From: a virus
Taxonomy: Duplodnaviria > Heunggongvirae > Uroviricota > Caudoviricetes
Virus record (IMG/VR): IMGVR_UViG_638341086_000008
Strand: one strand, 5' to 3'
Length of the DNA stretch: 49,769 nucleotides
Shown: positions 1 to 49,769 of the stretch, one piece after another
Position numbering within the stretch: position 1 is the stretch's first letter
Layout: each line of letters starts with the position of its first letter
Program-made: the position numbers and the translations under genes
Notes under the pieces: generated by a model
Database searches by the model: none
Told to the model about the DNA's origin: nothing
The model's input: only the letters and a program-made list of their open reading frames with translations

Positions 1-19
1 CTATTTGATAAATATTAAA

Positions 20-130
20 TTAATTTTTCATTGCTTCGTTATGGGGCATGGTTGGGGCAAACTCGCTTAACTGTGTATTTAACAAAGCTACCTGTGCATT
101 ATTGTTTTCAGACATCCATTTTCCGTATAC
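20..130 (-). pseudogene. int: 3' fragment of the prophage tyrosine integrase gene, displaced by the IS66-family insertion; encodes VYGKWMSENNNAQVALLNTQLSEFAPTMPHNEAMKN including the presumed catalytic Tyr
   Basis: Manual translation of the minus strand from 130 continues in frame with the int ORF at 2836..4022 once the IS (137..2835) and one copy of the 8-bp duplication are removed; stop TAA at 22..20; the Y-G-K-W motif follows the G-H box as expected for tyrosine recombinases. Confidence 0.7.
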
Positions 131-189
131 CTGAAAGTAACCGGCTCATTTAAACCGTCTGGTCTGTTTCCTCCGGCTCTACAAAAATA

Positions 190-867
190 ATGTCCATCAT
201 TTTTAATGGACACTATCGTATGAAACACCGGACCTGGATCACTGAAGCTTTACGTCTTCACTTTGAAGAACATTTACCCCGGGTTGTGGCCGGGCGTCGC
301 CTGAGTGTACCAAAATCAACAGTTTGTAGTATGTTCGTGCGCTTTCGGAGAGCTGGCCTTTCGTGGCCTTTGCCCGCAGGCATGTCGGAGCAGGAACTTG
401 ATGCCTGCCTTTACGGACAATTTTCCACGGTACCAGTCGTACGTCCTGAAAGCACCGTTATATCCGAAGCCCCCGTGGTAAAAAAACGTCCCCGGCGGCC
501 CAACTTCCCTTATGAGTTTAAAATCGCCTTAGTGGAGCAGTCACTACAGCCCGGAGCCTGTGTGGCGCAGATCGCCCGGGAAAACGGAATCAACGATAAC
601 CTGCTCTTCAACTGGCGCCATCAATACCGGAAAGGTGGCCTGCTGCCTTCCGGAAAAAATATGCCGGCACTGCTTCCCGTGACGTTAACGCCGGAGCCGG
701 ATAATAAAATCCCGGCCCCCGCACAGGAACCAGAGCAGATAAATACACCGTCCGACAGTCTGTGTTGTGAGCTGGTTCTGCCGGCCGGAACTCTCAGGCT
801 TAAAGGTAAACTGACGCCGGCGTTATTACAGACACTTATCCGCGAAATAAAAGGGAGCAGCCACTGA
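190..867 (+). CDS. tnpA: IS66-family accessory protein TnpA with an unusual ~95 aa N-terminal extension
   Basis: C-terminal half (PNFPYEFKIALVEQSLQPGACVAQIARENGINDNLLFNWR) matches the HTH of the other two IS66 TnpA copies in this window; the N-terminal part (..RAGLSWPLPAGMSEQELDACLYG) resembles an IstA-like HTH region. Confidence 0.7.
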   Translation: MSIIFNGHYRMKHRTWITEALRLHFEEHLPRVVAGRRLSVPKSTVCSMFVRFRRAGLSWPLPAGMSEQELDACLYGQFSTVPVVRPESTVISEAPVVKKRPRRPNFPYEFKIALVEQSLQPGACVAQIARENGINDNLLFNWRHQYRKGGLLPSGKNMPALLPVTLTPEPDNKIPAPAQEPEQINTPSDSLCCELVLPAGTLRLKGKLTPALLQTLIREIKGSSH

Positions 868-1214
868 TGATATCTCTCCCTGCAGGTTCGCGTATCTGGC
901 TGGTTGCAGGTATCACCGATATGCGAAATGGCTTTAACGGCCTGGCATCAAAAGTTCAGAACGTCCTGAAGGATGACCCGTTCTCCGGACACCTGTTCAT
1001 CTTCCGCGGACGCCGGGGTGACCAGATAAAAGTGTTGTGGGCTGACAGTGACGGACTGTGCCTCTTCACCAAACGCCAGGAGCGGGGCCGCTTCGTCTGG
1101 CCAGTCACCCGTGACGGCAAGGTGCACCTTACTCCGGCTCAGTTATCCATGCTTCTTGAAGGTATCAACTGGAAGCACCCGAAACGAACGGAACGCGCTG
1201 GAATCCGCATATAA
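867..1214 (+). CDS. tnpB: IS66-family TnpB (Orf2)
   Basis: 115 aa; ATGA overlap with tnpA; motif LVAGITDMRNGFNGLA...LFIFRGRRGD...LCLF conserved with the two other copies in the window. Confidence 0.85.
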   Translation: MISLPAGSRIWLVAGITDMRNGFNGLASKVQNVLKDDPFSGHLFIFRGRRGDQIKVLWADSDGLCLFTKRQERGRFVWPVTRDGKVHLTPAQLSMLLEGINWKHPKRTERAGIRI

Positions 1215-1233
1215 CCCGTTGTAAAGTGAGGAT

Positions 1234-2805
1234 ATGGACACCTCACTTGCTCATGAGAACGCCCGCCTGCGGGCACTGTTGCAGACGCAACAGGACACCA
1301 TCCGCCAGATGGCTGAATACAACCGCCTGCTCTCACAGCGGGTGGCGGCTTATGCTTCCGAAATCAACCGGCTGAAGGCGCTGGTTGCGAAACTGCAACG
1401 TATGCAGTTCGGTAAAAGCTCAGAAAAACTTCGTGCAAAAACCGAACGGCAGATACAGGAAGCACAGGAGCGAATCAGCGCACTTCAGGAAGAAATGGCG
1501 GAAACGCTGGGTGAGCAATATGACCCGGTACTGCCATCCGCCCTGCGCCAGTCTTCAGCCCGTAAACCGTTACCGGCCTCACTTCCCCGTGAAACCCGGG
1601 TTATCCGGCCGGAAGAGGAATGCTGTCCTGCCTGTGGTGGTGAACTCAGTTCTCTGGGATGTGATGTGTCAGAGCAACTGGAGCTTATCAGCAGCGCCTT
1701 TAAGGTTATCGAAACACAACGTCCGAAACAGGCCTGTTGCCGGTGCGACCATATCGTGCAGGCACCAGTACCTTCAAAACCCATTGCACGCAGTTATGCC
1801 GGAGCGGGGCTTCTGGCCCATGTTGTCACCGGGAAATATGCAGACCATCTGCCGTTATACCGCCAGTCAGAAATATACCGTCGTCAGGGAGTGGAGCTGA
1901 GCCGTGCCACACTGGGGCGCTGGACAGGTGCTGTTGCTGAACTGCTGGAGCCGCTGTATGACGTCCTGCGCCAGTATGTGCTGATGCCCGGTAAAGTCCA
2001 TGCTGATGATATCCCCGTCCCGGTCCAGGAGCCGGGCAGCGGTAAAACCCGGACAGCCCGGCTGTGGGTCTACGTCCGTGATGACCGTAACGCCGGTTCA
2101 CAGATGCCCCCGGCGGTCTGGTTCGCGTACAGTCCGGACCGGAAAGGTATCCATCCACAAAATCACCTGGCCGGTTACAGCGGTGTGCTTCAGGCCGATG
2201 CTTACGGTGGTTACCGGGCGTTATACGAATCCGGCAGAATAACGGAAGCCGCGTGTATGGCTCATGCCCGGAGAAAAATCCACGATGTGCATGCAAGAGC
2301 GCCCACCTACATCACCACGGAAGCCCTGCAGCGTATCGGTGAACTGTATGCCATCGAGGCAGAGGTCCGGGGCTGTTCAGCAGAACAGCGTCTGGCGGCA
2401 AGAAAAGCCAGAGCCGCGCCACTGATGCAGTCACTGTATGACTGGATACAGCAACAGATGAAAACACTGTCGCGTCACTCAGATACGGCAAAAGCGTTCG
2501 CATACCTGCTGAAACAGTGGGATGCACTGAACGTGTACTGCAGTAATGGCTGGGTGGAAATCGACAACAACATCGCAGAGAACGCCTTACGGGGAGTGGC
2601 CGTAGGCCGGAAAAACTGGATGTTCGCGGGTTCCGACAGCGGTGGTGAACATGCGGCGGTGTTGTACTCGCTGATCGGCACATGCCGTCTGAACAATGTG
2701 GAGCCAGAAAAGTGGCTGCGTTACGTCATTGAACATATCCAGGACTGGCCGGCAAACCGGGTACGCGATCTGTTGCCCTGGAAAGTTGATCTGAGCTCTC
2801 AGTAA
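1234..2805 (+). CDS. tnpC: IS66-family transposase TnpC (intact, 523 aa)
   Basis: N-terminal leucine-zipper-like region, CxxC...CxxC zinc-finger motifs, DDE-type core; full length with no frameshift, unlike copies 2 and 3. Confidence 0.85.
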
Positions 2806-2831
2806 ATATCAATACGGTTCTGACGAGTCGC

Positions 2832-4022
2832 TTACACCTGAAATACCATTTGCGCATCTGCATGGCCCATCTGGTTTGCTATAAATGCCGGGTTAGCACC
2901 AGCTGTCAGCGACCAGCAGGCATAAGTATGTCTCGACTGATATGATTTTCGATGGCGGAGTCCGGCACGTTTTATCGCTGCGTCCCACATCTGCCTTATT
3001 GAGTCAACGGTAAAATGGTCACCATAATTTTTTACTCTCGCTGACACTTCAGGTTGAAAAACAAAGGTGCATTTTTGTTTTTCTGTTCTGCCATACTCTC
3101 TGAGGTGAACATCAATGATATGCTCTTTGCTCAGTCTCGTTAATGTCATCTGACTCCGGAGAGCGTCGATTGCTGGCTTAATAAGATGAATGACCCGATT
3201 GGTTCCCGCCTGTGTTTTTGGTACCGTGAAACGGTCTTTTGCTAAATTTCTCCTGATCATCATTGTTCCATTTTTCAGATCTATGTCCTCCCATCCAAGT
3301 GCACACAGCTCACCAGGGCGAACGCCAGTATAAACAGAAACACACCATAAATTTTTTGCTTGCTGATTTCTGCACGCATCGATAAGACGGATAAATTCCT
3401 CCCGCGCAAGAGGATCCGGAATGGTTCTTGATTCCTTTAATGGCGAGATCCCCTTAAACGGATTATCTGCCAGGTAACCGTTATCAACACCAAACTGGAA
3501 CACGGCGTTAAGATTTGTCATGTAATTATTTACAGTTACAGCCGTTCTCCCTGGTTGTGTAACAATATAGTTACTTTTGGGGATCTGGTATCCAGTCAGT
3601 AGCTCTTTACGAACCTCCAGTAATTTTTCTTTATTAATCGATGAGGCAAGATTTTTTTCACCGATTATGCTCAGGATATTTTTGATGACGGCACGGTATG
3701 TGTTGAGTGATGTTTTGGCGACTTCAGTTTCTTTCAGTGCCAGAAATTTTTCAGCCAGTTCTTTTATGGTTAAATCTTGTCGGGCCTCACCAAATTTTTC
3801 CAGATTGCGTGAGGAGGGAAACTGTTTTGCATAGTCGAAAACACCAGTTTTTATTGCGTAACAAACAGAGGAGCGTAGTTCACCTGCAACGCGCCTGTTT
3901 TTTGCTGTGTCAGGAACCCCCAGATTTTCCCTGACTCTTACGCCTTTATAAACAAACCAGATACGTAATTTCCCTCCATGGTTTTCCACGCCTGTCGGAT
4001 ATTTCATTTCAACTTCTCTCAT
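2832..4022 (-). pseudogene. int: Prophage tyrosine integrase, truncated at the C-terminus by IS66 insertion (stop codon supplied by the IS terminus)
   Basis: 396-aa ORF with integrase boxes (..RHTYACWSL.., ..MGHADAQMVFQV) ends at a TAA lying inside the IS end (2832..2834); native int sequence starts at 2836; the catalytic Tyr codon lies in the displaced fragment at 20..130. Confidence 0.8.
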
Positions 4023-4041
4023 TAGTTAGTGTGGCTTTTAG

Positions 4042-4293
4042 TCAAGTAAGATGACGTCTTGGTCTCGCTGATGCCTGGCGCTCAATCCAGCGATCAATTT
4101 CTTCCAGGTTGTAAAAGCATGGACTGTTATCCCATGGCATACCGTCATGAGCGACATGCTTATATTCCCTTCCTTCCATAAACGATTTTTCCCGGGCCTT
4201 TTTTAACGTACCTTTTTTTATTCCTTTCAGCGCAATTAACTGCTCTTCGGATACCCATTTGCCGGGAGAGACAATCATGATTACTTCGCTCAT
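4042..4293 (-). CDS. xis: Putative excisionase / small DNA-binding protein downstream of int
   Basis: 83-aa basic ORF immediately adjacent to int in the canonical int-xis position; function assigned by position and size only. Confidence 0.45.
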   Translation of the reverse strand: MSEVIMIVSPGKWVSEEQLIALKGIKKGTLKKAREKSFMEGREYKHVAHDGMPWDNSPCFYNLEEIDRWIERQASARPRRHLT

Positions 4294-4365
4294 CGATTTC
4301 TTTATCTCTTACATCAGACGAGCGCCGGTTGCAGAATACCAGTCACAACCGGCGACAGTTGAACA

Positions 4366-6837
4366 TTAAGAATCAGCCTGACTCGGGATCAGTTTTTGCC
4401 AGATAACTGAAACGTATTTTGCCTGGTAACGGGCGTCATCAAGTGCATTATGGCGCTCACCTTCGAATGGAATAGCCGTTCTGGCATCGAAGTCTATGGC
4501 TTTCCCCAGCTCAACGATTGTGCGTACATCGCGATCGTTGTAGTAACGCCACGGGCAGGGGATCCCCTGCCGTTCGTATGAACGGCGCAAAATCGTGTTG
4601 TCGAAGTTGGCTCCATTTCCCCAAACCTGAACAAAAAATTCACCGGAGTTTTCGTCGATAAATTCCCGCAATTGTAACAGTGCATCATCTAACGGGATTT
4701 CATCGGTCATAATGGCAGATTGCGCTTCGCGTGATTGCTTAAGCCACCATTTAATGGTGTCCCGATCAATGACTCCGCCAGCAGTTTCCAGATCGATAGT
4801 CTTACTAAATTCCGGTCCCATATCTCCGGTTTGCGGATCGAAAAATATTGCACCTATTGAGATGATCGGGGCATCAGGATTTTTTCCCATGGTTTCAAGG
4901 TCGATCATTAGATGGTCACACGTCCTGCTGGTGGATGTGATTTCGTGATGACCGTTCACCTTAATTGGGTGATCTGCCGTCTCGCCAGTTTCATTATCGC
5001 TATTGTGATGCTGATTGCCGCCAGTGTTCTCCTTGTGTGGATGTTCAGCGCCTTCCATTTCCTCCGGATCATCTTCCTGAACTTCAACCTGATACTCTTC
5101 ATCGAATGTTTCTTGGTATGTTGCGTCGCCCATCACCGCGCCACAATCAGGGCAGTTGCCGTCGCCGGTCTGACCGCAGGCGGTGCAGGCTTTTTCCACT
5201 TCCTGTTGCGCCACTGGTTCAGGCTGTTTCGTTTCTGGCTCGTTTTGTAACGCATTTGGACTGTTTTGTTCCGCTTTTTGGTAGTTCCGTTCCGATTCAT
5301 GCTGGTTCTGGTTCACAGAATCGCGGGTCTGGATCCCCTTAACCCATTTCGGATCATTCGGGTCACTAATCCCTTCAACAAATTCACCACGTGATGCAGC
5401 AAGCAACTTATCGGCGTCAGGCTGGCTGATATTGGCTGCCTGCATAATTTTGTTTACTTCGTCAGCGGTAACTTTTATCGGCTCTGGTTGTTCTGAATCT
5501 TCAGCGGTATCTACATTTTGCGGTAAGCCCGTGTATGTGCCATTTTTTCGGGCAAAATATTCTTCTTTTGTGATTTCAGTGGCGCCAGCAGCCAGTGCCT
5601 TATCCAGACCAGAAAGTTTGTTTGCGCGACCGTATTTTTCTCCGTCCTTATCTGCGAAGAGGAAATAGAACGGCCCCTCACGCTCTACAGATGGTTCAGC
5701 TTCCGGCGCGGTTTCATTTTTTGGGATATCAGATACCTCAGTTTCCACTGCATCAGTTTGTGTTTCTGATGACTGGAGAACATCAACAGTGCCCAGGTCT
5801 GTTTCTTCATTCTCAAACACGCCCTTTGTCGTCAGGTATTCGCAGATATATTTGTTCAGTGCTACGGGATCTTTGTGAATGTCGATCGGACGCTCACGGA
5901 CAAGGCCAAAAATAGTTTGGCGGTCGTAGCGAAGGGCATCAGGCTGTTTGCGCATTGATGCCGAGATACGCTTCCAGTCTTCGCGGTCGTTGTCGATAAC
6001 TTCTTTTTTTGCCCAGCGATGGATGCTGCCGTCAATGTTTCCGGCATCCACATCACCAGGCCAGAGAGCGTAGGCCAGTTCGTCATCCAGTGTTTTCCAT
6101 GTCTGCTTGTATTCGCGATGAATGGCAGCAATGACCGGGCTGATTTTTCCTGTTGAATTTTCAGTGTACTGTTGATTGGCTCTGGCGCGGGCGAGATCAA
6201 CAACAGACGTGTATTTTCCGGTTTCCTTGCGTTCACCTTCGCGACGTTTTTTCCAGATGCGCATCTCTGCCTGAATTTCGGGCCATTTAGCACCAGGAAT
6301 ACATTTATGCTTAACCCACCCAATGGCGTGCAACTTAAGCTCCGGATACATGGCGTTAACTTCTGGCATTTTCATCAACGCTTCAACGATATGTCCGTCG
6401 AATGTTGCCATGTCTTCCTGCAACAATTCCTGTGCGCTAATAACCATATCAACGGTGATGTTTTCACATGTGTCGAACTTAACCATGACAGCGTTCTGTA
6501 CTTCAGGGGCCAGCTTGTCAAAAGTGACGTTCATCGGATCGGATTCAGTCTCAACCGGGACAAAAGAAGCAGACTCCTCATCCCAGCGGTTTTCCTGCAT
6601 ATATTCAGCATCCCATGAATCGAGGGCAGGGCGGGGTATGCCAGGTTTATCCTCGCAGACAATAAATTTATAAGCGCAGTCCTGAGCAGCCGGATAATGT
6701 TCCAGGAACTGCCAGTGAAATTTTGCTCGAGCACGGCGTTCGTCGCCAGCTTCAATGGCTGTGGCTACAGCCACAGCGCCTTCTTCCCTTGTTGCCAGTT
6801 CGTCAGGAATAGCGGCGCAAATAAAGACTTTACTCAT
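4366..6837 (-). CDS. Large phage exonuclease-like protein: C-terminal DnaQ-like (DEDDh) 3'-5' exonuclease domain, central Cys4 zinc ribbon, long acidic linker
   Basis: 823-aa ORF; C-terminus carries exonuclease motifs (MIDLETMG..., ...HNALDDARY); CTACG...CPDCG zinc ribbon; position next to xis matches the early-left exo slot of lambdoid phages. Confidence 0.65.
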   Translation of the reverse strand: MSKVFICAAIPDELATREEGAVAVATAIEAGDERRARAKFHWQFLEHYPAAQDCAYKFIVCEDKPGIPRPALDSWDAEYMQENRWDEESASFVPVETESDPMNVTFDKLAPEVQNAVMVKFDTCENITVDMVISAQELLQEDMATFDGHIVEALMKMPEVNAMYPELKLHAIGWVKHKCIPGAKWPEIQAEMRIWKKRREGERKETGKYTSVVDLARARANQQYTENSTGKISPVIAAIHREYKQTWKTLDDELAYALWPGDVDAGNIDGSIHRWAKKEVIDNDREDWKRISASMRKQPDALRYDRQTIFGLVRERPIDIHKDPVALNKYICEYLTTKGVFENEETDLGTVDVLQSSETQTDAVETEVSDIPKNETAPEAEPSVEREGPFYFLFADKDGEKYGRANKLSGLDKALAAGATEITKEEYFARKNGTYTGLPQNVDTAEDSEQPEPIKVTADEVNKIMQAANISQPDADKLLAASRGEFVEGISDPNDPKWVKGIQTRDSVNQNQHESERNYQKAEQNSPNALQNEPETKQPEPVAQQEVEKACTACGQTGDGNCPDCGAVMGDATYQETFDEEYQVEVQEDDPEEMEGAEHPHKENTGGNQHHNSDNETGETADHPIKVNGHHEITSTSRTCDHLMIDLETMGKNPDAPIISIGAIFFDPQTGDMGPEFSKTIDLETAGGVIDRDTIKWWLKQSREAQSAIMTDEIPLDDALLQLREFIDENSGEFFVQVWGNGANFDNTILRRSYERQGIPCPWRYYNDRDVRTIVELGKAIDFDARTAIPFEGERHNALDDARYQAKYVSVIWQKLIPSQADS

Positions 6838-7146
6838 TTTGTTTTAACCTCATGACAGATTTAAGGATGAACAAATCCCTGCCATTGCTGGCATATAAGA
6901 ATGAAACCGGATATTTATTACGGAACTGTTTTAAAGACCTGCCGGGATTTCGATATTATCCTGGTGAATAACTTTATCGACCGGGTAACAGTTACCGGGA
7001 ATTTTCTGTTCGGTTGCTGCAGTCATACACTCCTGCATTGTCCTGTGAACACTGACTGCAATATCAACTGGCACTCCGGAAACAAGAAAAACTGAACCGC
7101 CCCGGGAATCCTGGAGACTAAACTTCCTGAGAAAGAGGTAAACAGG

Positions 7147-7473
7147 ATGACTAAAAATACTCGTTTTTCCCCTGAAGTCCGTCAACGGGCAGTCCGTATG
7201 GTTCTGGAAAGTCAGGGCGAATATGACTCACAATGGGCGACAATTTGTTCCATTGCTCCAAAGATTGGCTGTACGCCGGAGACTCTGCGTGTCTGGGTTC
7301 GCCAGCATGAGCGGGATACCGGGGGCGGTGATGGAGGGCTCACCACCGCTGAACGTCAGCGTCTGAAAGAGCTGGAGCGTGAAAATCGTGAACTGCGCCG
7401 CAGTAACGATATCCTTCGCCAGGCTTCCGCTTATTTTGCGAAGGCGGAGTTCGACCGCCTCTGGAAAAAATAA
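7147..7473 (+). CDS. IS629 OrfA (HTH/leucine zipper transposase subunit)
   Basis: 108 aa, [19 protein letters not shown]...; identical to the inverted copy at 17729..18055. Confidence 0.9.
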
Positions 7474-8360
7474 TGCCACTGCTGGATAAGCTGCGTGAGC
7501 AGTGCGGGGTCGGACCGGTATGCAGTGAACTGCATATTGCCCCGTCAACGTATTACCACTGTCAGCAACAGCGACATCATCCGGATAAACGCAGTGCCCG
7601 TGCGCAGCGCGATGACTGGCTGAAGAAAGAGATACAGCGCGTATACGATGAAAATCACAAGGTATACGGTGTGCGTAAAGTCTGGCGTCAGTTGTTACGG
7701 GAAGGTATCAGAGTGGCCAGATGCACTGTGGCACGTCTCATGGCGGTTATGGGACTTGCCGGTGTTCTCCGGGGTAAAAAGGTCCGTACGACCATCAGCC
7801 GGAAAGCCGTTGCCGCAGGCGACCGCGTAAACCGTCAGTTCGTGGCAGAACGACCTGACCAGCTGTGGGTGGCTGATTTTACTTACGTCAGCACATGGCA
7901 GGGCTTCGTCTATGTGGCGTTCATCATTGATGTGTTTGCCGGATACATTGTGGGGTGGCGGGTCTCATCGTCCATGGAGACGACATTCGTGCTGGATGCA
8001 CTGGAGCAGGCGTTATGGGCCCGTCGACCGTCCGGCACGGTCCATCACAGTGATAAAGGTTCTCAGTATGTATCGCTGGCCTACACACAGCGGCTTAAGG
8101 AAGCCGGATTACTGGCATCAACAGGAAGTACAGGCGACTCGTATGACAACGCGATGGCGGAGAGCATCAATGGTCTTTACAAAGCGGAGGTAATACACCG
8201 TAAGAGCTGGAAAAACCGTGCAGAAGTGGAACTGGCCACACTCACGTGGGTGGACTGGTATAACAATCGACGATTGCTGGAAAGGCTGGGCCATACTCCT
8301 CCGGCAGAAGCAGAAAAAGCTTATTATGCTTCCATCGGAAACGATGATCTGGCAGCCTGA
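7473..8360 (+). CDS. IS629 OrfB (DDE transposase catalytic subunit); probably expressed as OrfAB by -1 frameshift in the A6 run at 7464..7469
   Basis: 295 aa with DDE integrase core; reading frame is -1 relative to orfA; identical to the copy at 16842..17729. Confidence 0.9.
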   Translation: MPLLDKLREQCGVGPVCSELHIAPSTYYHCQQQRHHPDKRSARAQRDDWLKKEIQRVYDENHKVYGVRKVWRQLLREGIRVARCTVARLMAVMGLAGVLRGKKVRTTISRKAVAAGDRVNRQFVAERPDQLWVADFTYVSTWQGFVYVAFIIDVFAGYIVGWRVSSSMETTFVLDALEQALWARRPSGTVHHSDKGSQYVSLAYTQRLKEAGLLASTGSTGDSYDNAMAESINGLYKAEVIHRKSWKNRAEVELATLTWVDWYNNRRLLERLGHTPPAEAEKAYYASIGNDDLAA

Positions 8361-8431
8361 GTTCACAGATAAAACACTCTCCAGGAAACCCGGGGCGGTT
8401 CAGTATACGGCCATTTATACAGGAAAAGCCT

Positions 8432-13829: not shown

Positions 13830-14101
13830 AGGAACGTAGCACGTTTTATGCAACACCCGCATGCGGCAGAAAATTATTGCCGAACGTTTACCCCTGTCAA
13901 CAAGCTTTACTTTCTGAGGCGCGCCAGCCCGCGAGGAAAACAATCTGAACATCAAACAATTAATGACACAAGAAATACGATTAAAGATTTTTTTGTGCAT
14001 GCCGATAGTGCTTTTTGTAAGCGTAAACTGACCGCCGTATGTAGCCATCAGACGAGAATTGGTAACTTAGACGCCCATCTGATATAGACGGACATCTAAG
14101 T

Positions 14102-14527
14102 ATGGAATTACAGGACTGGCGAAAAGAACCTCGTAAAAACTATTCGAATGAATTCAAACTTCGTATGGTGGAACTGGCATCACAACCTGGAGCTTGTGTT
14201 GCACAGATTGCACGTGAAAATGGCGTCAATGATAATGTTATTTTCAAATGGCTCAGGCTCTGGCAGAACGAAGGGCGTGTTTCGCGGCGTCTTCCGGTAA
14301 CGACCTCTTCTGACACTGGCGTTGAATTATTACCTGTAGAAATAACGCCGGATGAGCAGAAAGAACCTGTGGCGGCCATTGCGCCGTCTTTATCCACTTC
14401 CACTCAGACCAGAGTCAGTGCCAGTTCCTGCAAGGTGGAATTCCGTCACGGTAACATGACGCTGGAAAATCCATCGCCAGAGCTGCTCACAGTGTTGATC
14501 CGTGAACTGACCGGGAGGGGAAGATGA
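14102..14527 (+). CDS. tnpA: IS66-family TnpA (copy 2)
   Basis: 141 aa; HTH region ASQPGACVAQIARENGVNDNVIFKWLR. Confidence 0.8.
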   Translation: MELQDWRKEPRKNYSNEFKLRMVELASQPGACVAQIARENGVNDNVIFKWLRLWQNEGRVSRRLPVTTSSDTGVELLPVEITPDEQKEPVAAIAPSLSTSTQTRVSASSCKVEFRHGNMTLENPSPELLTVLIRELTGRGR

Positions 14528-14874
14528 TCTCACTCCCATCAGGTACCCGTATCTGGCTCGTTGCCGGCGTTACCGATATGCGTAAATCCTTCAACGGACT
14601 GGGAGAACAGGTACAACATGTGCTGAATGATAATCCCTTCTCCGGTCACCTGTTTATCTTCCGTGGCCGACGGGGTGACACCGTCAAAATTCTTTGGGCT
14701 GATGCTGATGGTCTGTGCCTGTTCACCAAACGCCTGGAGGAAGGCCAGTTTATCTGGCCTGCGGTACGTGACGGCAAGGTATCCATTACCCGCTCGCAAC
14801 TGGCAATGCTCCTCGATAAGCTGGACTGGCGTCAGCCAAAAACATCCAGCCGTAACTCACTGACAATGTTGTAA
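14524..14874 (+). CDS. tnpB: IS66-family TnpB (copy 2)
   Basis: 116 aa; MISLPSGTRIWLVAGVTDMRKSFNGL... conserved with the other copies; ATGA overlap with tnpA. Confidence 0.85.
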   Translation: MISLPSGTRIWLVAGVTDMRKSFNGLGEQVQHVLNDNPFSGHLFIFRGRRGDTVKILWADADGLCLFTKRLEEGQFIWPAVRDGKVSITRSQLAMLLDKLDWRQPKTSSRNSLTML

Positions 14875-14904
14875 AAAACTCCTGACCGCATTATAAAAAC
14901 GGTC

Positions 14905-16517
14905 ATGAGTCAGAAATACCTCATTCGCATCGCAGAGCTGGAAAGGTTGCTCTCTGAGCAGGCTGAAGCCCTCCGTCAGAAAGACCAGCAACTGAGTCTG
15001 GTTGAAGAGACGGAAGCCTTCCTGCGCTCTGCACTGACACGTGCCGAAGAAAAGATCGAAGAAGATGAACGGGAAATAGAACATCTGCGGGCTCAGATAG
15101 AAAAACTGCGCCGGATGCTGTTCGGTACCCGTTCTGAAAAACTGCGTCGTGAAGTTGAACTGGCTGAGGCTCTGCTGAAACAACGTGAACAGGACAGCGA
15201 TCGTTACAGTGGGCGGGAAGACGATCCTCAGGTTCCCCGCCAGTTGCGACAGTCGCGCCATCGTCGTCCGTTACCGGCACACCTTCCCCGTGAAATACAC
15301 CGCCTGGAGCCAGAAGAAAGCTGTTGCCCGGAGTGTGGCGGTGAGCTGGATTATCTGGGGGAAGTCAGCGCTGAACAGCTGGAACTGGTGAGCAGTGCCC
15401 TGAAAGTGATCCGCACAGAACGGGTAAAAAAAGCCTGTACAAAATGTGACTGTATTGTTGAAGCACCGGCGCCGTCCCGCCCGATAGAGCGTGGTATCGC
15501 GGGCCCCGGATTACTTGCCCGCGTGTTAACGGGAAAATACTGCGAACATCTGCCACTGTATCGTCAGAGTGAAATCTTTGCCCGCCAGGGTGTCGAACTG
15601 AGCCGGGCCTTACTCTCCAACTGGGTTGACGCGTGCTGCCAGTTAATGACACCGGTGATGATGCCCTGTACCGTTATGTAATGAACACCCGCAAGGTTCA
15701 CACTGATGACACACCGGTAAAGGTACTGGCACCGGGTCAGAAAAAGGCGAAAACAGGGCGTATCTGGACGTATGTCCGGGATGATCGCAATGTGGGTTCG
15801 TCATCTCCTCCAGCGGTCTGGTTCGCGTACTCGCCGAACCGGCAGGGGAAACACCCGGAGCAACACCTCCGCCCCTTCCGGGGTATCCTGCAGGCGGATG
15901 CGTTCACAGGTTACGACAGGTTGTTCAGTGCAGAACGTGAAGGTGGTGCACTGACAGAAGTTGCGTGCTGGGCCCATGCCCGGCGAAAAATCCACGATGT
16001 ATACATCAGCAGCAAAAGTGCGACGGCAGAAGAAGCCCTGAAGCGAATCAGTGAACTGTACGCCATCGAGGATGAAATACGGGGATTACCGGAGTTAGAG
16101 CGTCTTGCCGTCAGGCAGCAGCGAAGCAAAGTGTTACTGACGTCGCTGCATGAATGGATGGTGGAGAAGAATGGTACGCTGTCGAAAAAATCCAGACTGG
16201 GCGAAGCGTTCAGCTATGTACTGAATCAGTGGGATGCCCTCTGTTATTACAGTGATGACGGTCTGGCGGAGGCGGATAATAATGCTGCGGAAAGAGCGCT
16301 TCGTGCAGTCTGTCTCGGAAAGAAAAACTTTATGTTCTTTGGCAGCGATCACGGCGGCGAGCGTGGAGCACTGTTGTACGGGCTGATCGGCACCTGCCGT
16401 CTGAACGGTATCGATCCGGAAGCGTATCTGCGCCATATCCTGAGCGTACTGCCGGAATGGCCTTCCAACCGAGTTGATGAACTCCTGCCATGGAACGTAG
16501 TACTCACCAATAAATAA
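14905..16517 (+). pseudogene. tnpC: IS66-family transposase TnpC (copy 2), interrupted by a frameshift near 15633..15681
   Basis: Two overlapping ORFs (14905..15681 and 15633..16517) together cover the full TnpC alignment seen in copy 1; the frame changes where copy 1 reads ..[14 protein letters not shown]... Confidence 0.75.
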
Positions 16518-16570
16518 GCGTCAATACGGTGCTCCGTTGACGCTTACTGCTTTTTTAAAAGGAGAAATCT

Positions 16571-16799: not shown

Positions 16800-16841
16800 T
16801 GAACCGCCCCGGGTTTCCTGGAGAGTATTTTATCTGTGAAC

Positions 16842-17729
16842 TCAGGCTGCCAGATCATCGTTTCCGATGGAAGCATAATAAGCTTTTTCTGCTTCTGCCG
16901 GAGGAGTATGGCCCAGCCTTTCCAGCAATCGTCGATTGTTATACCAGTCCACCCACGTGAGTGTGGCCAGTTCCACTTCTGCACGGTTTTTCCAGCTCTT
17001 ACGGTGTATTACCTCCGCTTTGTAAAGACCATTGATGCTCTCCGCCATCGCGTTGTCATACGAGTCGCCTGTACTTCCTGTTGATGCCAGTAATCCGGCT
17101 TCCTTAAGCCGCTGTGTGTAGGCCAGCGATACATACTGAGAACCTTTATCACTGTGATGGACCGTGCCGGACGGTCGACGGGCCCATAACGCCTGCTCCA
17201 GTGCATCCAGCACGAATGTCGTCTCCATGGACGATGAGACCCGCCACCCCACAATGTATCCGGCAAACACATCAATGATGAACGCCACATAGACGAAGCC
17301 CTGCCATGTGCTGACGTAAGTAAAATCAGCCACCCACAGCTGGTCAGGTCGTTCTGCCACGAACTGACGGTTTACGCGGTCGCCTGCGGCAACGGCTTTC
17401 CGGCTGATGGTCGTACGGACCTTTTTACCCCGGAGAACACCGGCAAGTCCCATAACCGCCATGAGACGTGCCACAGTGCATCTGGCCACTCTGATACCTT
17501 CCCGTAACAACTGACGCCAGACTTTACGCACACCGTATACCTTGTGATTTTCATCGTATACGCGCTGTATCTCTTTCTTCAGCCAGTCATCGCGCTGCGC
17601 ACGGGCACTGCGTTTATCCGGATGATGTCGCTGTTGCTGACAGTGGTAATACGTTGACGGGGCAATATGCAGTTCACTGCATACCGGTCCGACCCCGCAC
17701 TGCTCACGCAGCTTATCCAGCAGTGGCAT
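16842..17729 (-). CDS. IS629 OrfB (copy 2)
   Basis: Protein identical to 7473..8360. Confidence 0.9.
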   Translation of the reverse strand: MPLLDKLREQCGVGPVCSELHIAPSTYYHCQQQRHHPDKRSARAQRDDWLKKEIQRVYDENHKVYGVRKVWRQLLREGIRVARCTVARLMAVMGLAGVLRGKKVRTTISRKAVAAGDRVNRQFVAERPDQLWVADFTYVSTWQGFVYVAFIIDVFAGYIVGWRVSSSMETTFVLDALEQALWARRPSGTVHHSDKGSQYVSLAYTQRLKEAGLLASTGSTGDSYDNAMAESINGLYKAEVIHRKSWKNRAEVELATLTWVDWYNNRRLLERLGHTPPAEAEKAYYASIGNDDLAA

Positions 17730-18055
17730 TATTTTTTCCAGAGGCGGTCGAACTCCGCCTTCGCAAAATAAGCGGAAGCCTGGCGAAGGATATCGTTACT
17801 GCGGCGCAGTTCACGATTTTCACGCTCCAGCTCTTTCAGACGCTGACGTTCAGCGGTGGTGAGCCCTCCATCACCGCCCCCGGTATCCCGCTCATGCTGG
17901 CGAACCCAGACACGCAGAGTCTCCGGCGTACAGCCAATCTTTGGAGCAATGGAACAAATTGTCGCCCATTGTGAGTCATATTCGCCCTGACTTTCCAGAA
18001 CCATACGGACTGCCCGTTGACGGACTTCAGGGGAAAAACGAGTATTTTTAGTCAT
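17729..18055 (-). CDS. IS629 OrfA (copy 2)
   Basis: Protein identical to 7147..7473. Confidence 0.9.
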
Positions 18056-18645
18056 CCTGTTTACCTCTTTCTCAGGAAGTTTAGTCTCCAGGATTCCCGG
18101 GGCGGTTCACGCTGCCGTCAGAGGCAAAACAACCAAAACCGCCGAAGGAATGCTCACCAACATGCTCGGAGATATTGCAGCAGAAGCTCAGCTTTATGCT
18201 GAAATTGCTGACGAACGCTACATCGCAGGAGTGACTTGTCAACAGATCTATGAATCTTTAAGAGATAAAAAGCATCAAATGTAGGGTAATATTAAATCGG
18301 AACATTTACATCGCGGAATGTAAAATTTGAATAAAAAGGACTCTTCCATGAGCCAAAATTCCTGAAATCTTAAGGGTAAGATAAAAGGTCTTAATCAGAA
18401 TGACACGTTTTATTAATAAATAAAGCTATTCTTTCATTGCTGTGTTTTTCTTTACAAAAGTAATCCTTGCTATGGGTGGTTAATCATGCGTTAATGGTGT
18501 TCTGGTTTGTTACAAATTTATCTGAAGCAGTCATTGTTATAATTTTATTATTTGTACCTCTTGAGATTTCCTTGTTGGTTTTTCTCTCTGATATTTTTTT
18601 CGGACCATTCTGCCCAAGGGCTAATTTCTTCAAAAGGTAATAATT

Positions 18646-35075: not shown

Positions 35076-35112
35076 GTAAGCGTGCAGCAAGAACCGTATT
35101 GACGGGGATGTG

Positions 35113-36650
35113 TTATTCAGTCGGCAGTGCTACGCGCCAGGGGAGCAGTTCGCCGACCCGGTTTATCGGCCAGTCGGCTATGACGTCAAGGACATAGCGG
35201 AGGTAGCTTTCTGGCTCCACTCCGTTCAGTTTGCACGTCCCGATCAGGCTGTACAGCAGCGCTCCCCGCTCTCCTCCATGATCCGAACCGAAGAACAGGT
35301 AGTTTTTGCGGCCCAGACTGACCATCCGCAACGCATTTTCAGCGATGTTATTGTCCGCCTCAGCCCAGCCATCATCTGCATAGTACGTCAGCGCCGGCCA
35401 CTGGTTCAGGGCGTATGCGAACGCTTTCGCCAGTTCTGAGTGTCGCGACAGGGTTTTCATCTTTTCACGCAGCCAGCTTTCCAGGGATTTCAGCAGCGGT
35501 TTCGTTTTCAACTGACGTTCGGCAAGGCGCTGCTCCGCCGTCATTCCCCTTATCTCTGCCTCGATGGCGTACAGTTCGCCGATCCGTTTCAGCGCTTCCT
35601 CCGTCAGGGCTGACGGGGTGCGAACGTGCACATCGTGGATTTTACGGCGGGCGTGAGCCCAACAGGCGGCTTCCGTTATCCGGCCATCCCGGTACAGCTC
35701 GTTGAACCCGGCGTATGCATCCGCCTGCAGTACACCACTGAACCCCGCAAGATGGGTCTGCGGATGGATGCCTTTTCTGTCCGGGCTGTAAGCGAACCAC
35801 ACCGCCGGCGCCAGCGTTGACCCGGCGTTACGGTCGTCACGAACGTAGGTCCATAACCGCCCGGTCTTCGTTTTCTTATTGCCTGGCAACAGCACCGGGA
35901 CAGGCGTGTCATCAGCATGGAGCTTACCGTCAGTCAGCACATAGTCCTGAAGCGCTTCTTCCAGCGGTGACAGTAGCCGGCAGCATGCATCCACCCAGCC
36001 CGACAGCAGTGAACGACTCAGCTCCACGCCCTGGCGGCCGTACATTTCAGACTGGCGGTACAGCGGGGTGTGCTCTGCATACTTTGAGATCAGCACGCGG
36101 GCCAGCAGCCCCGGTCCTGCGATACCCCGCTCGATGGGCCGTGAAGGCGCGGGGGCTGCACGATGGCATCGCACTGAGTACAGGCATGCTTTTCACGTAC
36201 AGTCCGGATAACCCGGAAGGCGCTGCGCATCAGCTCCAGCTGTTCGGCGGCATCCTCACCCAGATAGCTCAGCGAGCCTCCACATTCCGGGCAGCATGAC
36301 GCTGCCGGCAGCAGCCGTTTTTCATCGCGGGGGAGTGATTCGGGGAACGGTTTGCGGGTGCGGGTTTGACGCAGCGGGCGCTGCACGGCCGGGTCGTCAA
36401 CCCGACCGGTAAGGGTATCACTTTCTTTCTGAAGTGCCTTCAGGTCAGCTTCCATCGGTGCGATACGACGGGAGACTTTTTCCGAGCGGCTGCCGAAGTT
36501 CATCCGGCGCAGCTTATCCAGCTGTGCCTGCAGATGGTCTATTTCGCGTTCACGCTCGTTCAGCTTTTCCTGCAGGGCACGGTTCAGCGCCTCCTGTTCG
36601 GCAAGGAGACGTTTCAGTGCATTGATATCGTCAGGAAGTGAGCTGCTCAT
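35113..36650 (-). pseudogene. tnpC: IS66-family transposase TnpC (copy 3), frameshifted near 36090..36174
   Basis: Two overlapping minus-strand ORFs (36090..36650 and 35113..36174) together span the TnpC alignment. Confidence 0.75.
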
Positions 36651-36698
36651 ACCGGGTATATTACCAGGCTCATTCAGCGTCGACCAGGATAAAGAGGC

Positions 36699-37046
36699 TT
36701 ACAACATAGTCAGGGACGTAAGCAGTCTTTTAGGCTGCCGCCAGTCGATACCTTCCAGCAGCATCGCCAGCTGTGCCGGTGTGAGGAACACTTTGCCATC
36801 CCGGGCTGACGGCCAGGCGAAGCGGCCGCGCTCCAGCCGTTTGGTCAGCAGACACAGTCCATCGCCGGTAGACCAGAGGAGCTTTACCTGACTGCCATTA
36901 CGCCCACGGAAGATAAAAACGTGACCTGACATCGGATCGTCTTTCAGCGTCGTCTGCACCTTTGCCGCCAGGCCGTTGAAGCCGTTTCTCATATCGGTGA
37001 TGCCAGCGACCAGCCAGATCTTTGTCCCTGATGGTAATGGGATCAA
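36699..37046 (-). CDS. tnpB: IS66-family TnpB (copy 3)
   Basis: 115 aa, MIPLPSGTKIWLVAGITDMRNGFNGL.... Confidence 0.85.
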   Translation of the reverse strand: MIPLPSGTKIWLVAGITDMRNGFNGLAAKVQTTLKDDPMSGHVFIFRGRNGSQVKLLWSTGDGLCLLTKRLERGRFAWPSARDGKVFLTPAQLAMLLEGIDWRQPKRLLTSLTML

Positions 37047-37447
37047 CGTTTGAGCTCCCGTATCAGCAGGTTCAGGATATTTTCGCTGATGGCACCATTC
37101 AGACGGAGTGATCCGTGCCGGAACGTCACTTCACAGCTGATATTGAGTGATTCAGGTGTCGCAGCAGCTACAGGTTGTGACCGGGGGGAGGTTGTAGGGA
37201 CAACATCTTCGGCATCAAGTGTTATCGGGAGCAGCTCAGGCACGTTGTTTTCTGTTGTTGAAGGAGGACGTAGTTTTCCTTCGCGCCAGTACTGGCGCCA
37301 CTTGAACAGCAAATTATCGTTGATCCCATGCTCACGAGCGAGTTGCGCTACGGAGATCTCTGGTCGATGCGAGAGTTCAACCATTTTGATTTTGAACTCA
37401 ACGGGATAATTAGGGCTTTTTTTACGCACTGCGGTTAATGATTTCAT
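37043..37447 (-). CDS. tnpA: IS66-family TnpA (copy 3)
   Basis: 134 aa, ..YPVEFKIKMVELSHRPEISVAQLAREHGINDNLLFKWR.. Confidence 0.8.
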   Translation of the reverse strand: MKSLTAVRKKSPNYPVEFKIKMVELSHRPEISVAQLAREHGINDNLLFKWRQYWREGKLRPPSTTENNVPELLPITLDAEDVVPTTSPRSQPVAAATPESLNISCEVTFRHGSLRLNGAISENILNLLIRELKR

Positions 37448-37536
37448 GGATAGCGTCCACCATATTTGGTGTCCACTATTCTCTCAGGAATTTCAGGATC
37501 TGCCAGACGGTGCTGAGACGACGCTTACAAAGATAT

Positions 37537-47700: not shown

Positions 47701-48485
47701 GAAGATATTCCTTAAAATATTATTGATTTTCATTGCGATATTGTATGTCTGATTCAGGATATGTTGACTTATACATCGGTTTTGTCTGGGTTATTGGATA
47801 TGCCAATCCCTAATTTTATTAGGGCATGGCTAAAAATGCTGAATATGATAAGGAGAGAAGTGATTATCAGTATGCTGTTCATATAGCCTCGAATTAGTAA
47901 TGTGTTATATATGATATAGTTGACAATTTTTATCTTGGGTGTTCTTAAAGTTCGTAGATAAACATTGTCGTTTCAGGTATACAGGAATGCTAACAGGTGG
48001 CAGCAAAAATCAGGCGGTTTATGGCGCAAGCTGAAGCGGCAACTGCAAACTATCTTATGCAGAGACTCTACACGGATTGGGTTTAAAAGTATACATAGAT
48101 AACAGTTTTTATCTGAAAAAGAAAAATATCAAGGTGATATAGCCTATATGCCTTTGATGCGGAGGAATGAATGTGATGGGAGTGATGTATCTGAATAGTT
48201 GAAAAACCGCAGACACGCCTTATGCAAGAACGTGCTGCGGTTGGCTGGTAAATTTTTCGATAGTGTGAGTATTGAATGATTTCCAGCCGTTCTTGATTTT
48301 ACGCATAAATCCATGAAAAAACTACTTATCTGTTGGGGAGTTTTTTTGGGGCATATATGGGACAGAAATAGGCCCCAGATAGACACTGAGATCGAACTTA
48401 GGATGCTTTTTAAAAAATGCAACTATCTGAAAAAACCTAGAAAACGCCAAGGAAACCACAGGATGGGAAAAAACACCTGTGAATT

Positions 48486-49769
48486 ATGGATTTCCAGTTA
48501 TATTCGCTCGGCGCAGCGTTGGTGTTTCATGAAATATTTTTTCCTGAATCATCAACGGCAATGGCGTTAATTTTGGCAATGGGAACCTACGGTGCAGGTT
48601 ATGTGGCGCGTATTGTCGGAGCATTTATTTTCGGCAAAATGGGCGACAGAATAGGGCGTAAAAAAGTGCTCTTTATTACCATCACCATGATGGGGATCTG
48701 TACCACCTTAATTGGTGTGTTACCGACCTATGCACAGATTGGTGTTTTTGCCCCCATCTTGCTGGTGACGCTGCGTATTATTCAGGGGTTGGGTGCAGGT
48801 GCGGAAATTTCCGGTGCCGGTACGATGCTGGCGGAATATGCACCAAAAGGTAAGCGCGGAATTATCTCCTCATTTGTAGCTATGGGAACTAACTGCGGAA
48901 CCTTGAGCGCAACGGCAATCTGGGCCTTTATGTTCTTCATTCTCAGTAAAGAGGAACTGCTGGCGTGGGGATGGCGTATACCGTTCCTGGCGAGCGTTGT
49001 CGTGATGGTCTTTGCTATCTGGTTACGTATGAATCTGAAAGAAAGCCCGGTCTTTGAGAAGGTTAATGACAGCAACCAACCCACAGCAAAACCTGCACCT
49101 GCTGGTAGCATGTTCCAGAGCAAATCCTTCTGGCTGGCAACAGGGCTGCGTTTTGGTCAGGCGGGTAACTCCGGGTTAATTCAGACTTTCCTTGCAGGCT
49201 ATTTAGTGCAGACGTTATTGTTTAACAAAGCAATTCCAACAGATGCATTGATGATTAGTTCGATTCTCGGCTTTATGACCATTCCGTTCCTTGGTTGGTT
49301 ATCCGATAAAATTGGTCGCCGGATCCCGTATATTATTATGAATACCTCCGCGATTGTGCTGGCATGGCCAATGCTTTCTATCATTGTAGATAAAAGCTAT
49401 GCCCCGAGCACCATTATGGTTGCACTGATTGTGATTCATAACTGTGCGGTGCTGGGATTATTTGCTCTGGAAAACATTACCATGGCAGAAATGTTCGGCT
49501 GTAAAAACCGCTTTACCCGGATGGCTATTTCTAAAGAAATTGGTGGTCTTATCGCTTCCGGTTTTGGTCCTATCCTGGCGGGTATTTTCTGCACCATGAC
49601 GGAATCCTGGTATCCGATCGCCATTATGATCATGGCATATTCAGTAATTGGTTTAATCTCTGCGCTGAAAATGCCAGAGGTGAAAGACCGTGATTTAAGT
49701 GCGCTGGAAGACGCTGCGGAAGATCAACCGCGTGTTGTAAGAGCTGCGCAACCTTCCAGAAGTCTGTAA
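48486..49769 (+). CDS. ydfJ: MFS-superfamily metabolite:H+ symporter, apparently 5'-truncated at the prophage junction
   Basis: 427-aa multi-pass membrane protein with MFS signature (..GKMGDRIGRKKVL..); an in-frame stop sits immediately upstream of the first ATG and the ORF lacks the usual first transmembrane segment; stop codon is the last base of the window. Confidence 0.75.
   Translation: MDFQLYSLGAALVFHEIFFPESSTAMALILAMGTYGAGYVARIVGAFIFGKMGDRIGRKKVLFITITMMGICTTLIGVLPTYAQIGVFAPILLVTLRIIQGLGAGAEISGAGTMLAEYAPKGKRGIISSFVAMGTNCGTLSATAIWAFMFFILSKEELLAWGWRIPFLASVVVMVFAIWLRMNLKESPVFEKVNDSNQPTAKPAPAGSMFQSKSFWLATGLRFGQAGNSGLIQTFLAGYLVQTLLFNKAIPTDALMISSILGFMTIPFLGWLSDKIGRRIPYIIMNTSAIVLAWPMLSIIVDKSYAPSTIMVALIVIHNCAVLGLFALENITMAEMFGCKNRFTRMAISKEIGGLIASGFGPILAGIFCTMTESWYPIAIMIMAYSVIGLISALKMPEVKDRDLSALEDAAEDQPRVVRAAQPSRSL

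Follow-up and report, generated by a model that had tools for sequence, protein, structure and literature searches.

The stretch of DNA analysed here (the window, 49,769 nucleotides) is 100% identical to the chromosome of Escherichia coli E110019 (NZ_CP035751.1), an atypical EPEC strain, and carries a Qin-type lambdoid prophage lying inside ydfJ. The assignment to the Qin type follows from the flanks (left, rspB and the 5' end of ydfJ; right, ydfJ'), from the att core repeated at both junctions and from the annotated Qin cargo genes (relBE, hokD, cspB/F/I, ydfT/U, gnsB, pinQ and tfaQ). At the left end of the prophage the integrase gene int is split by an insertion sequence, with the following features.

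19-29 nt left of window position 1 (E110019 chromosome locus): attL core, matching TTATGGATTTC
20..130, minus strand: orphaned 3' end of int, with the stop codon at 20..22 and the Tyr codon TAC at 125..127, encoding (V)YGKWMSENNNAQVALLNTQLSEFAPTMPHNEAMKN
42..48 and 53..59, plus strand: two tandem TGGGGCA motifs, candidate arm-type sites for Int in attL, with the att core to their left and the insertion sequence to their right
129..136, no strand: left copy of the 8-bp target-site duplication ACCTGAAA, exact
137..2835, plus strand: ISCro1, IS66 family, 2,699 bp, left inverted repeat GTAACCGG, right inverted repeat CGCTTAC
190..867, plus strand: tnpA, 225 aa (Pfam HTH_Tnp_1, E=1.8e-14; PGAP)
867..1214, plus strand: tnpB, 115 aa (Pfam TnpB_IS66, E=1.2e-38)
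1234..2805, plus strand: tnpC, DDE transposase, 523 aa (DDE_Tnp_IS66, E=2.5e-103; also zf-IS66, LZ_Tnp_IS66 and DDE_Tnp_IS66_C)
2832..4007, minus strand: truncated int ORF, 391 aa (start at 4007) or 396 aa (ATG at 4022), ending ...QMVFQV and then TAA
2836..2843, no strand: right copy of the target-site duplication ACCTGAAA, exact
4042..4293, minus strand: xis, excisionase of the XisR type, 83 aa, intact (Pfam DUF1233 'putative excisionase', E=1.6e-31; PGAP)
48484..48494, plus strand: attR core TTATGGATTTC, inside ydfJ

The original prediction placed an IS66-family element at 137..2835 between 8-bp duplications at 129..136 and 2836..2843, and both the coordinates and the Pfam matches of the three ORFs agree with it. 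The match between the two copies of ACCTGAAA stops at 8 bp, with no extension on either side. The element ends in GTAACCGG and (reverse complement) GTAAGCGA, imperfect inverted repeats that are alike at 18 of 26 positions and start with GTAA, and its tnpA, tnpB and tnpC genes are consecutive, as in the IS66 family. The TnpC protein is WP_000381395.1, named by PGAP 'IS66-like element ISCro1 family transposase'; the identification as ISCro1 rests on this product name and on the recurrence of the 2,699-bp element in many E. coli genomes. In gene order, 8-bp duplication and GTAA termini it resembles ISCro1 of Citrobacter rodentium and E. coli without any difference in kind, and only the insertion site is new. 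ISCro1 has expanded to 24 copies in C. rodentium (PMC3072379) and disrupts genes in ST131 (PMC8764528), although the copy length given for ST131 is 2,824 bp, compared with 2,699 bp here.

Removal of the element and of one duplicate restores int in frame. Positions 1..136 joined to 2844..4022 yield a 431-aa ORF (426 aa when counted from the start that PGAP and the homologues use), which ends in ...QVYGKWMSENNNAQVALLNTQLSEFAPTMPHNEAMKN exactly as had been predicted. The likely start is at 4007 (MKYPTG...). The 20..130 frame, had it been unlike integrases, would have spoken against this reconstruction; its product shows no difference from the C-terminal end of an intact homologue or of phage integrases. 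In the present sequence the int ORF ends ...GHADAQMVFQV, its last codon, GTG, borrowing the third base from the insertion sequence, and the TAA stop (2832..2834) lies within the terminus of the element, as anticipated. The exact truncated product has a RefSeq entry (WP_000877008.1), and int of E110019 is already marked in RefSeq/PGAP as a pseudogene 'missing C-terminus'.

The reconstructed protein has both the catalytic domain and fold of a tyrosine recombinase (Phage_integrase, PF00589, E=4e-18, residues 207-397) and an N-terminal arm-binding domain (Arm-DNA-bind_2, PF12167, E=1.6e-23, residues 9-72). A Foldseek search with the model of a 98%-identical intact homologue matched Tn1549 Int, XerA and full-length lambda Int with E values of 1e-11 to 1e-9, the full-length lambda Int structure being aligned over about 400 columns. 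Among 30 homologues, down to 59% identity, R230, K264, Y356-x-x-R359, H382 and Y392 are invariant. Of these, the truncated Int keeps R230, K264, Y356/R359 and H382, together with the arm-binding domain and the core-binding region, and is without Y392, in agreement with the suggestion that the DNA-binding part and most catalytic residues would survive. Since the Tyr is absent, the product encoded in the window lacks a complete active site, whereas the reconstructed protein has one.

The interruption was predicted to fall one codon before the catalytic Tyr, and the alignments bear this out: the Tyr concerned is invariant within a VYGxWM segment, no other Tyr follows the second conserved His, and no alignment places a Tyr upstream of the break. 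By sequence, Y392 is the only candidate nucleophile. Its position was given correctly in the earlier prediction, but, with the likely start at 4007, it is counted as Y392 of 426 aa and not as Y397 of 431. In the homologue model it falls within the C-terminal helix (residues 386-398, pLDDT 74), and the support from the model is limited to the fold and this helix placement. Y392 aligns with the XerA Tyr; the column that holds the canonical Tyr in Tn1549 Int (Y379) and lambda Int (Y342) instead meets the preceding Val when the sequences are aligned without gaps. For lambda Int this placement comes only from a short, gap-free pairwise match near the G-H motif, and an hhalign comparison of the family profile with lambda Int ended at residue 257, short of Y342. 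The canonical spacing between this His and the Tyr is 9 residues, and in E110019 Int it is 10; the nucleophile is therefore assigned from its invariance and as the sole candidate, the columns not matching cleanly.

The 11-bp core TTATGGATTTC is present at both prophage junctions. The heptamer TGGGGCA, a candidate arm-type Int-binding site judged from its sequence and position, occurs in only four copies on both strands of the window, three of them within about 140 bp of an att core; it was picked out by eye and counted afterwards, and a search for arm-type sites with 9-mers and 10-mers returned nothing. Elsewhere the prophage is heavily damaged. Annotation shows four other IS copies, namely ISEc22, which disrupts a tail gene, ISEc23 and two of the IS3 family. 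Genes for a repressor, a holin and an endolysin are absent from the annotation, as is the pL/immunity region, and of the lysis genes only a truncated Rz-like one (DUF2514) remains. In view of these four insertions, the loss of immunity and of holin and endolysin, and the disrupted tail gene, the prophage was already non-viable, and it was defective before ISCro1 arrived in int. A simple inversion between two IS629-like copies was also considered, and the bases flanking them match neither the direct-duplication nor the swapped-duplication pattern.

A 160-bp query for the rejoined empty site matched without a break in 2,950 of the 5,426 complete E. coli genomes, with 99% identity or more in 2,532; MG1655 matches at 100%. 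The contiguous int::ISCro1 junction occurs in just one of the 5,426. The same junction was detected in at least eight short contigs from other assemblies and runs; in two of these contigs the upstream context differs. The allele has thus persisted in a lineage, which is compatible with neutrality without proving it. Insertion of ISCro1 in this region recurs. In other strains the 1.8 kb attL–int–xis segment carries the element at no fewer than eight further positions, mid-int and xis included, and at eight other loci the copy was seen to be 2,699 bp long with an 8-bp duplication of its own. Several leave int intact, being located downstream of int in APEC17, LSN03 and EC4, at the int-proximal end of xis in fS25a and at the xis start in GPEC673. 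In view of this spread, the landing of ISCro1 beside the Tyr codon looks like coincidence. The first eight independent insertions near int all had the same orientation; however, a query containing ISCro1 matched 72 genomes in the original orientation and 80 with the element flipped, and the apparent bias is an artefact of ascertainment, since the search had joined same-strand pieces only.

We consider it about 90% probable that ISCro1 transposed into the 3' end of int in an already decayed Qin-type prophage, abolishing catalysis and excision in what was likely neutral decay. Transposition generated the usual 8-bp target duplication, and because the IS66-type terminus reads G-TAA in frame, translation ends right after Val391 (Val396 in the count of the original prediction). 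The encoded product lacks the nucleophilic Tyr392 and a 34-residue tail. Every tyrosine recombinase needs a covalent 3'-phosphotyrosyl intermediate, which should be impossible once Tyr392 is lost. Excision by the prophage's own Int would accordingly no longer occur despite the intact xis and both att cores, although Int of a related phage could excise the element in trans. The proposal that the insertion locks the prophage in place is plausible, as excision of K-12 Qin, which has an inactive intQ, is not detectable (PMC3105296), but it is overstated: the prophage was defective already, so that nothing viable was being locked, and self-excision was taken from an element unable to grow anyway. 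The insertion is a real but ordinary event, caused by a known mobile element, and most likely a neutral further stage in the decay or "grounding" of the prophage.

Two described cases are close to this one. K-12 Qin intQ' shares with it the integrase gene, the chromosomal site (beside rspB, with the prophage in ydfJ) and the IS-related inactivation. The extent of the lesion differs: in K-12 the N-terminal part of int is gone, as are xis and most of exo, beside an IS2 remnant, whereas E110019 retains xis and the first 391 residues of Int, and ISCro1 takes away only the Tyr and the tail. In the pandemic Vibrio cholerae Aux3 element, the 3' end of the tyrosine integrase gene is likewise interrupted by an IS, here IS5, right next to the codon for the catalytic Tyr, and the element is retained in the chromosome with most phage genes also lost (PMC7721734). 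There IS5 is inserted just after Y375, so that the Tyr is retained and residual excision persists (Santoriello et al. 2020, PMC7721734), while the truncated Int accumulates to a much lower level and has reduced function (PMC7721734). With the insertion just before the Tyr, the loss of catalysis in E110019 Int should, unlike in Aux3, be complete. The two integrases also belong to different subfamilies (P4-like in Aux3, PF12167-arm type in E110019), and Aux3 has been characterised by experiment, the E110019 case being known here from its sequence.

The same lesion might instead have been favoured by selection, keeping cargo such as relBE, hokD and cspB/F/I from loss by excision. One published proposal is that loss of integrase function is a selected way of 'grounding' prophages, Qin among them, and it reports many intQ lesions (PMC6379469); int and xis lesions do recur in this prophage family (IS2 in K-12, IS600 and ISCro1 in O26, and the 72 and 80 genomes matched by the ISCro1 queries); the presence of the allele in several samples would fit as well. 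Relaxed selection on a dead prophage, however, predicts recurrent IS insertions equally, the contiguous junction is confined to a single complete genome, and the nearby insertions that spare int indicate that int function is not specifically the target of ISCro1. We therefore regard positive selection as unlikely. An assembly artefact, or a truncated Int that is still active with a nucleophile elsewhere, has almost no probability in our estimate. The canonical column, 9 residues after the second conserved His, is occupied by Val in the ungapped alignments with Tn1549 Int and lambda Int, and the invariant Y356 occupies the box II first-His position; but that is the position of a general acid and not of a nucleophile, and Y392 is invariant, is placed by the model in the C-terminal helix and aligns with the XerA Tyr. 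The perfect 8-bp duplication around a full-length element is the signature of real transposition, and the same junction recurs in independent assemblies and read sets.

The original prediction also raised the idea of a truncated Int that binds att sites but does not cleave them. Such a tyrosine-less protein, if made, would sit on arm and core sites and could, as a dominant negative or by occupying att, block excision or integration by related phages such as mEp460-like ones. The PF12167 arm domain, the core-binding region and 4/5 of the other conserved active-site positions are retained, both att cores, like the candidate arm sites, are undamaged, and the exact allele persists across several samples; moreover, inactive DNA-binding regulators with the tyrosine recombinase fold exist, as exemplified by SPbeta MrpR (from the literature) and phi3T SroF (from a fold match). 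Nevertheless, we consider such a function very improbable. A promoter scan gave no candidate upstream of int on the int strand, the pL/immunity region is absent, and the existence of at least eight other ISCro1 positions, mid-int and xis included, means that nothing singles out the E110019 allele. In lambda Int and Cre, the C-terminal segment, which is lost here, mediates contacts between protomers, and this also counts against an att-binding role. The closest precedent, IS5-truncated Aux3 Int, accumulates poorly and has reduced function (PMC7721734). That the 391-aa protein is both expressed and kept as a non-catalytic occupant of the arm and core sites of attL, attR or attB appears, if anything, still less credible; if true, it would represent a domesticated dominant-negative integrase that hinders excision or integration by phages sharing this integrase, whether resident in the cell already or newly arriving, for example of the mEp460 type.

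Under the preferred reading of ordinary decay by ISCro1, the insertion is one more way in which a Qin-type prophage has become fixed in its host chromosome, here that of an outbreak strain of EPEC, and it carries little weight beyond strain-level bookkeeping. As a natural Int allele ending one residue before the nucleophile, it could serve as a catalytically dead control. Such a control would be relevant to the integrase family of mEp460-like phages and, more distantly, of Stx phages: the integrases of mEp460_ev081, HannyBb, PhiR42_1 and Tritos are 98.8-99.3% identical to the reconstructed Int over all 426 residues, and those of the Stx phages VT1-Sakai and BP-4795 about 62% identical, all with the same domain layout. 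In all these deposited phage genomes int is intact, whereas the copy in the window is interrupted, and its presence in the first four, which are lambdoid phages, speaks for a functional intact protein outside E110019. The pattern of ISCro1 at many independent attL–int–xis sites may be more useful than this single allele.

The integrase gene (int, minus strand) is split by ISCro1, an IS66-family element of 2,699 bp that starts with GTAACCGG, ends with CGCTTAC and lies between two exact copies of an 8-bp duplication, ACCTGAAA, with no extension of the match on either side. Its terminal inverted repeats are imperfect, being identical at 18 of the first 26 positions, and its three ORFs lie on the same strand.

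Features of the interrupted int gene (window coordinates)
129..136 and 2836..2843, target-site duplication, 8 bp
190..867, ISCro1 ORF 1 (tnpA), Pfam HTH_Tnp_1
867..1214, ISCro1 ORF 2 (tnpB), TnpB_IS66 (E=1e-38)
1234..2805, ISCro1 ORF 3 (transposase), DDE_Tnp_IS66 (E=2.5e-103) plus zinc-finger, leucine-zipper and C-terminal modules
4022 to 2832, minus strand, truncated int ORF, C-terminal end ...GHADAQMVFQV

Transposition of ISCro1 into int generated the duplication, and the IS66-type GTAA terminus gives an immediate stop in the int frame: the third base of the last int codon and the TAA stop are both contributed by the IS terminus. When 137..2843 is deleted in silico, the int ORF reads on as ...QVYGKWMSENNNAQVALLNTQLSEFAPTMPHNEAMKN to a stop at 20..22. 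The duplication, the IS66-type element, the IS-supplied stop and the rejoined frame were all described correctly in the original prediction and were recovered in the sequence; the extent of the int ORF stood as well, but its start at 4022 is less likely than 4007, the choice of PGAP and of all homologues.

Reconstructed Int has Pfam matches to Arm-DNA-bind_2 (residues 9-72) and Phage_integrase (207-397, numbered from the 4022 start), and the latter stops exactly at a tyrosine, Y392 in the 426-aa numbering from 4007. Across 30 aligned homologues, the most distant at 59% identity, R230, K264, Y356-Q-S-R359, H382 and Y392 are invariant, Y392 within an invariant V-Y-G-x-W-M motif, and it is the sole tyrosine beyond the second conserved histidine. 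By phmmer, Y392 pairs with the C-terminal Tyr of XerA at the cost of one gap; in ungapped alignments to Tn1549 Int (Y379, mutated to Phe in 6emy) and lambda Int (Y342), the established nucleophile column is occupied by the preceding Val, and Y392 falls one residue later. Y392 falls in the C-terminal helix (386-398) of an AlphaFold model (pLDDT 74) built for an intact homologue with 98% identity; the structures closest to this model are those of Tn1549 Int, XerA and full-length lambda Int. The His-to-Tyr spacing in this family is 10, compared with the usual 9. The same 10-residue spacing is probably shared by P4-type integrases. The identification of Y392 as the catalytic tyrosine, and with it the predicted loss of this residue, is well supported by the invariance, the single Tyr candidate and the XerA alignment, although the column match is not clean; the present truncated product has no tyrosine at either candidate column. 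At the first-His position of box II, this family (alignment A1) has the invariant Tyr Y356, so that Y-Q-S-R replaces H-x-x-R.

Window positions 1..4400 match the chromosome of E. coli E110019, an atypical EPEC (NZ_CP035751.1), at 100% identity; on that chromosome PGAP annotates ISCro1 (tnpA, tnpB, 'IS66-like element ISCro1 family transposase') and an integrase pseudogene ('incomplete; missing C-terminus'). A 160-bp empty-site query, comprising both flanks and a single duplication copy, was contiguous in 2,950 of the 5,426 complete E. coli genomes searched (at ≥99% identity in 2,532 of them), including K-12 MG1655 and O157:H7, and the empty site expected in related strains is therefore confirmed in silico. 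E110019 is the sole complete genome with a contiguous IS–int junction; beyond the complete genomes, draft assemblies, metagenome assemblies and SRA runs yielded at least eight short contigs with exactly this junction, ...TTTCAGGTG joined to TAAGCGACTCG, and two of these contigs differ in upstream context. The int::ISCro1 allele is real and inherited within a lineage. The exact 391-aa product is RefSeq WP_000877008.1, a non-redundant entry under the name 'site-specific integrase' or 'DUF3596 domain-containing protein' that does not indicate the missing catalytic tyrosine.

ISCro1, the Qin prophage type and this integrase family with its working phage relatives are already known, as is the pseudogene status of int in RefSeq; copies of ISCro1 have multiplied in Citrobacter rodentium (PMC3072379), and in ST131 the element disrupts regulatory DNA (PMC8764528). 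Inactivation of their integrases by IS elements is among the described routes by which prophages become fixed. The finding is correct but ordinary, and what is new is this insertion allele only, the kind being known already.

From the chemistry of tyrosine recombinases, truncated Int without its nucleophile should be unable to cleave DNA, and excision by the prophage's own Int would therefore be impossible. Retention of the DNA-binding domains would allow the truncated protein to act as a dominant-negative, but we consider this very improbable: no promoter-like site was found upstream of int on the int strand, and the early control region, the normal source of lambdoid int transcription, is missing here. 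The C-terminal segment of lambda Int and Cre mediates protomer-protomer contacts, and by analogy its loss would weigh further against such activity. The nearest published parallel points the same way: in pandemic Vibrio cholerae, IS5 cuts the Aux3 integrase directly after the catalytic Y375, and the truncated protein accumulates at much lower levels and has lost part of its function (PMC7721734).

Simple loss of excision by the prophage's own Int has precedents. Excision of K-12 Qin was undetected, which the authors ascribed to an inactive integrase (PMC3105296); the lesion of K-12 intQ differs from that seen here, its N-terminus being lost beside an IS2 remnant. A review covers the 'grounding' of Qin and other prophages by integrase inactivation and notes many intQ lesions (PMC6379469). 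In principle, Int supplied in trans could still excise the prophage, because nothing has disrupted the att cores, xis or the candidate arm sites.

Candidate excision determinants (window coordinates)
19-29 nt left of position 1, and again 48484..48494, att core TTATGGATTTC, 11 bp
4042..4293, xis, intact
42..48, 53..59 and 48347..48353, all on the same strand, candidate arm-type Int-binding sites TGGGGCA

Counting both strands, the 49.8-kb window has only four copies of TGGGGCA, and three of them lie no more than about 140 bp from the core of attL or attR; those at 42 and 53 lie inside the 3' coding end of int, like the annotated 'int 4' binding site of lambda. Intact integrases at 98.8-99.3% identity are encoded in the deposited phage genomes mEp460_ev081, HannyBb, PhiR42_1 and Tritos.

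The window holds an entire Qin-type lambdoid prophage, with rspA, rspB and the first ydfJ codons as left neighbours and ydfJ' ('missing N-terminus') at the right end. Apart from int it is heavily damaged, and it carries further insertions.

Other IS elements of the prophage (window coordinates)
7093..8402 and 16800..18109, two IS629-like (IS3-family) copies, inverted orientation, 100% identical
about 14100..16520, ISEc23 (IS66-family), adjoining truncated flxA
about 35100..37450, ISEc22 (IS66-family), splitting a tail gene (C40 peptidase, gpK-like)

Compared with K-12 Qin, the segment between the IS629-like copies (ynfU-cspB-cspF-ydfT...relBE-ydfV-ISEc23-flxA') has an inverted gene order, and no target duplication flanks either copy. 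The prophage annotation contains no repressor/immunity, replication, holin or endolysin genes, and the dicA/dicC/dicB region is missing. These features point to a history of IS-mediated inversion and deletions, with flanks that match no simple model; phage production is impossible for this prophage even given a working integrase. One 50-kb prophage thus holds three distinct IS66-family members (ISCro1, ISEc22 and ISEc23).

Through independent insertions, ISCro1 of equal length, each time with its own 8-bp duplication, occupies eight or more other positions over about 1.8 kb in Qin-type prophages of other E. coli (loci L002 and L004-L009).

Other ISCro1 insertions in the attL–int–xis region
At or near the rspB end and between rspB and int: LSN03, EC4, APEC17
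Mid-int: GPEC1258
Int-proximal (3') end of xis: fS25a
Within xis: O26:H11 11368
Start of xis: GPEC673

About 92% of the length of int precedes the Tyr codon, and therefore almost any insertion in int removes the tyrosine; the insertion one codon before it is probably a coincidence, and the position not special. The attL–int–xis region could be a true ISCro1 hotspot or merely tolerant of insertions. ISCro1 is in one orientation in 72 genomes with the element in this region and in the other in 80; a seeming bias in orientation stemmed from the search and vanished in a control.

In four proteins of 450-570 aa labelled 'integrase' (P0002-P0004 and P0023), YdfE_N/YdfE_C (exonuclease) Pfam domains are joined to a version of this Int with 98-99% identity. 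Strains that have lost the exo–xis–int interval may have given rise to them, either as gene fusions or as read-throughs in gene calling. ISCro1 TnpA has 225 aa, with the HTH_Tnp_1 match restricted to residues 102-159; no Pfam family matched its N-terminal ~100 residues at the threshold applied, and these residues are missing from the shorter TnpA (122-141 aa) that the annotation of these loci gives for ISEc8, ISEc22 and ISEc23.
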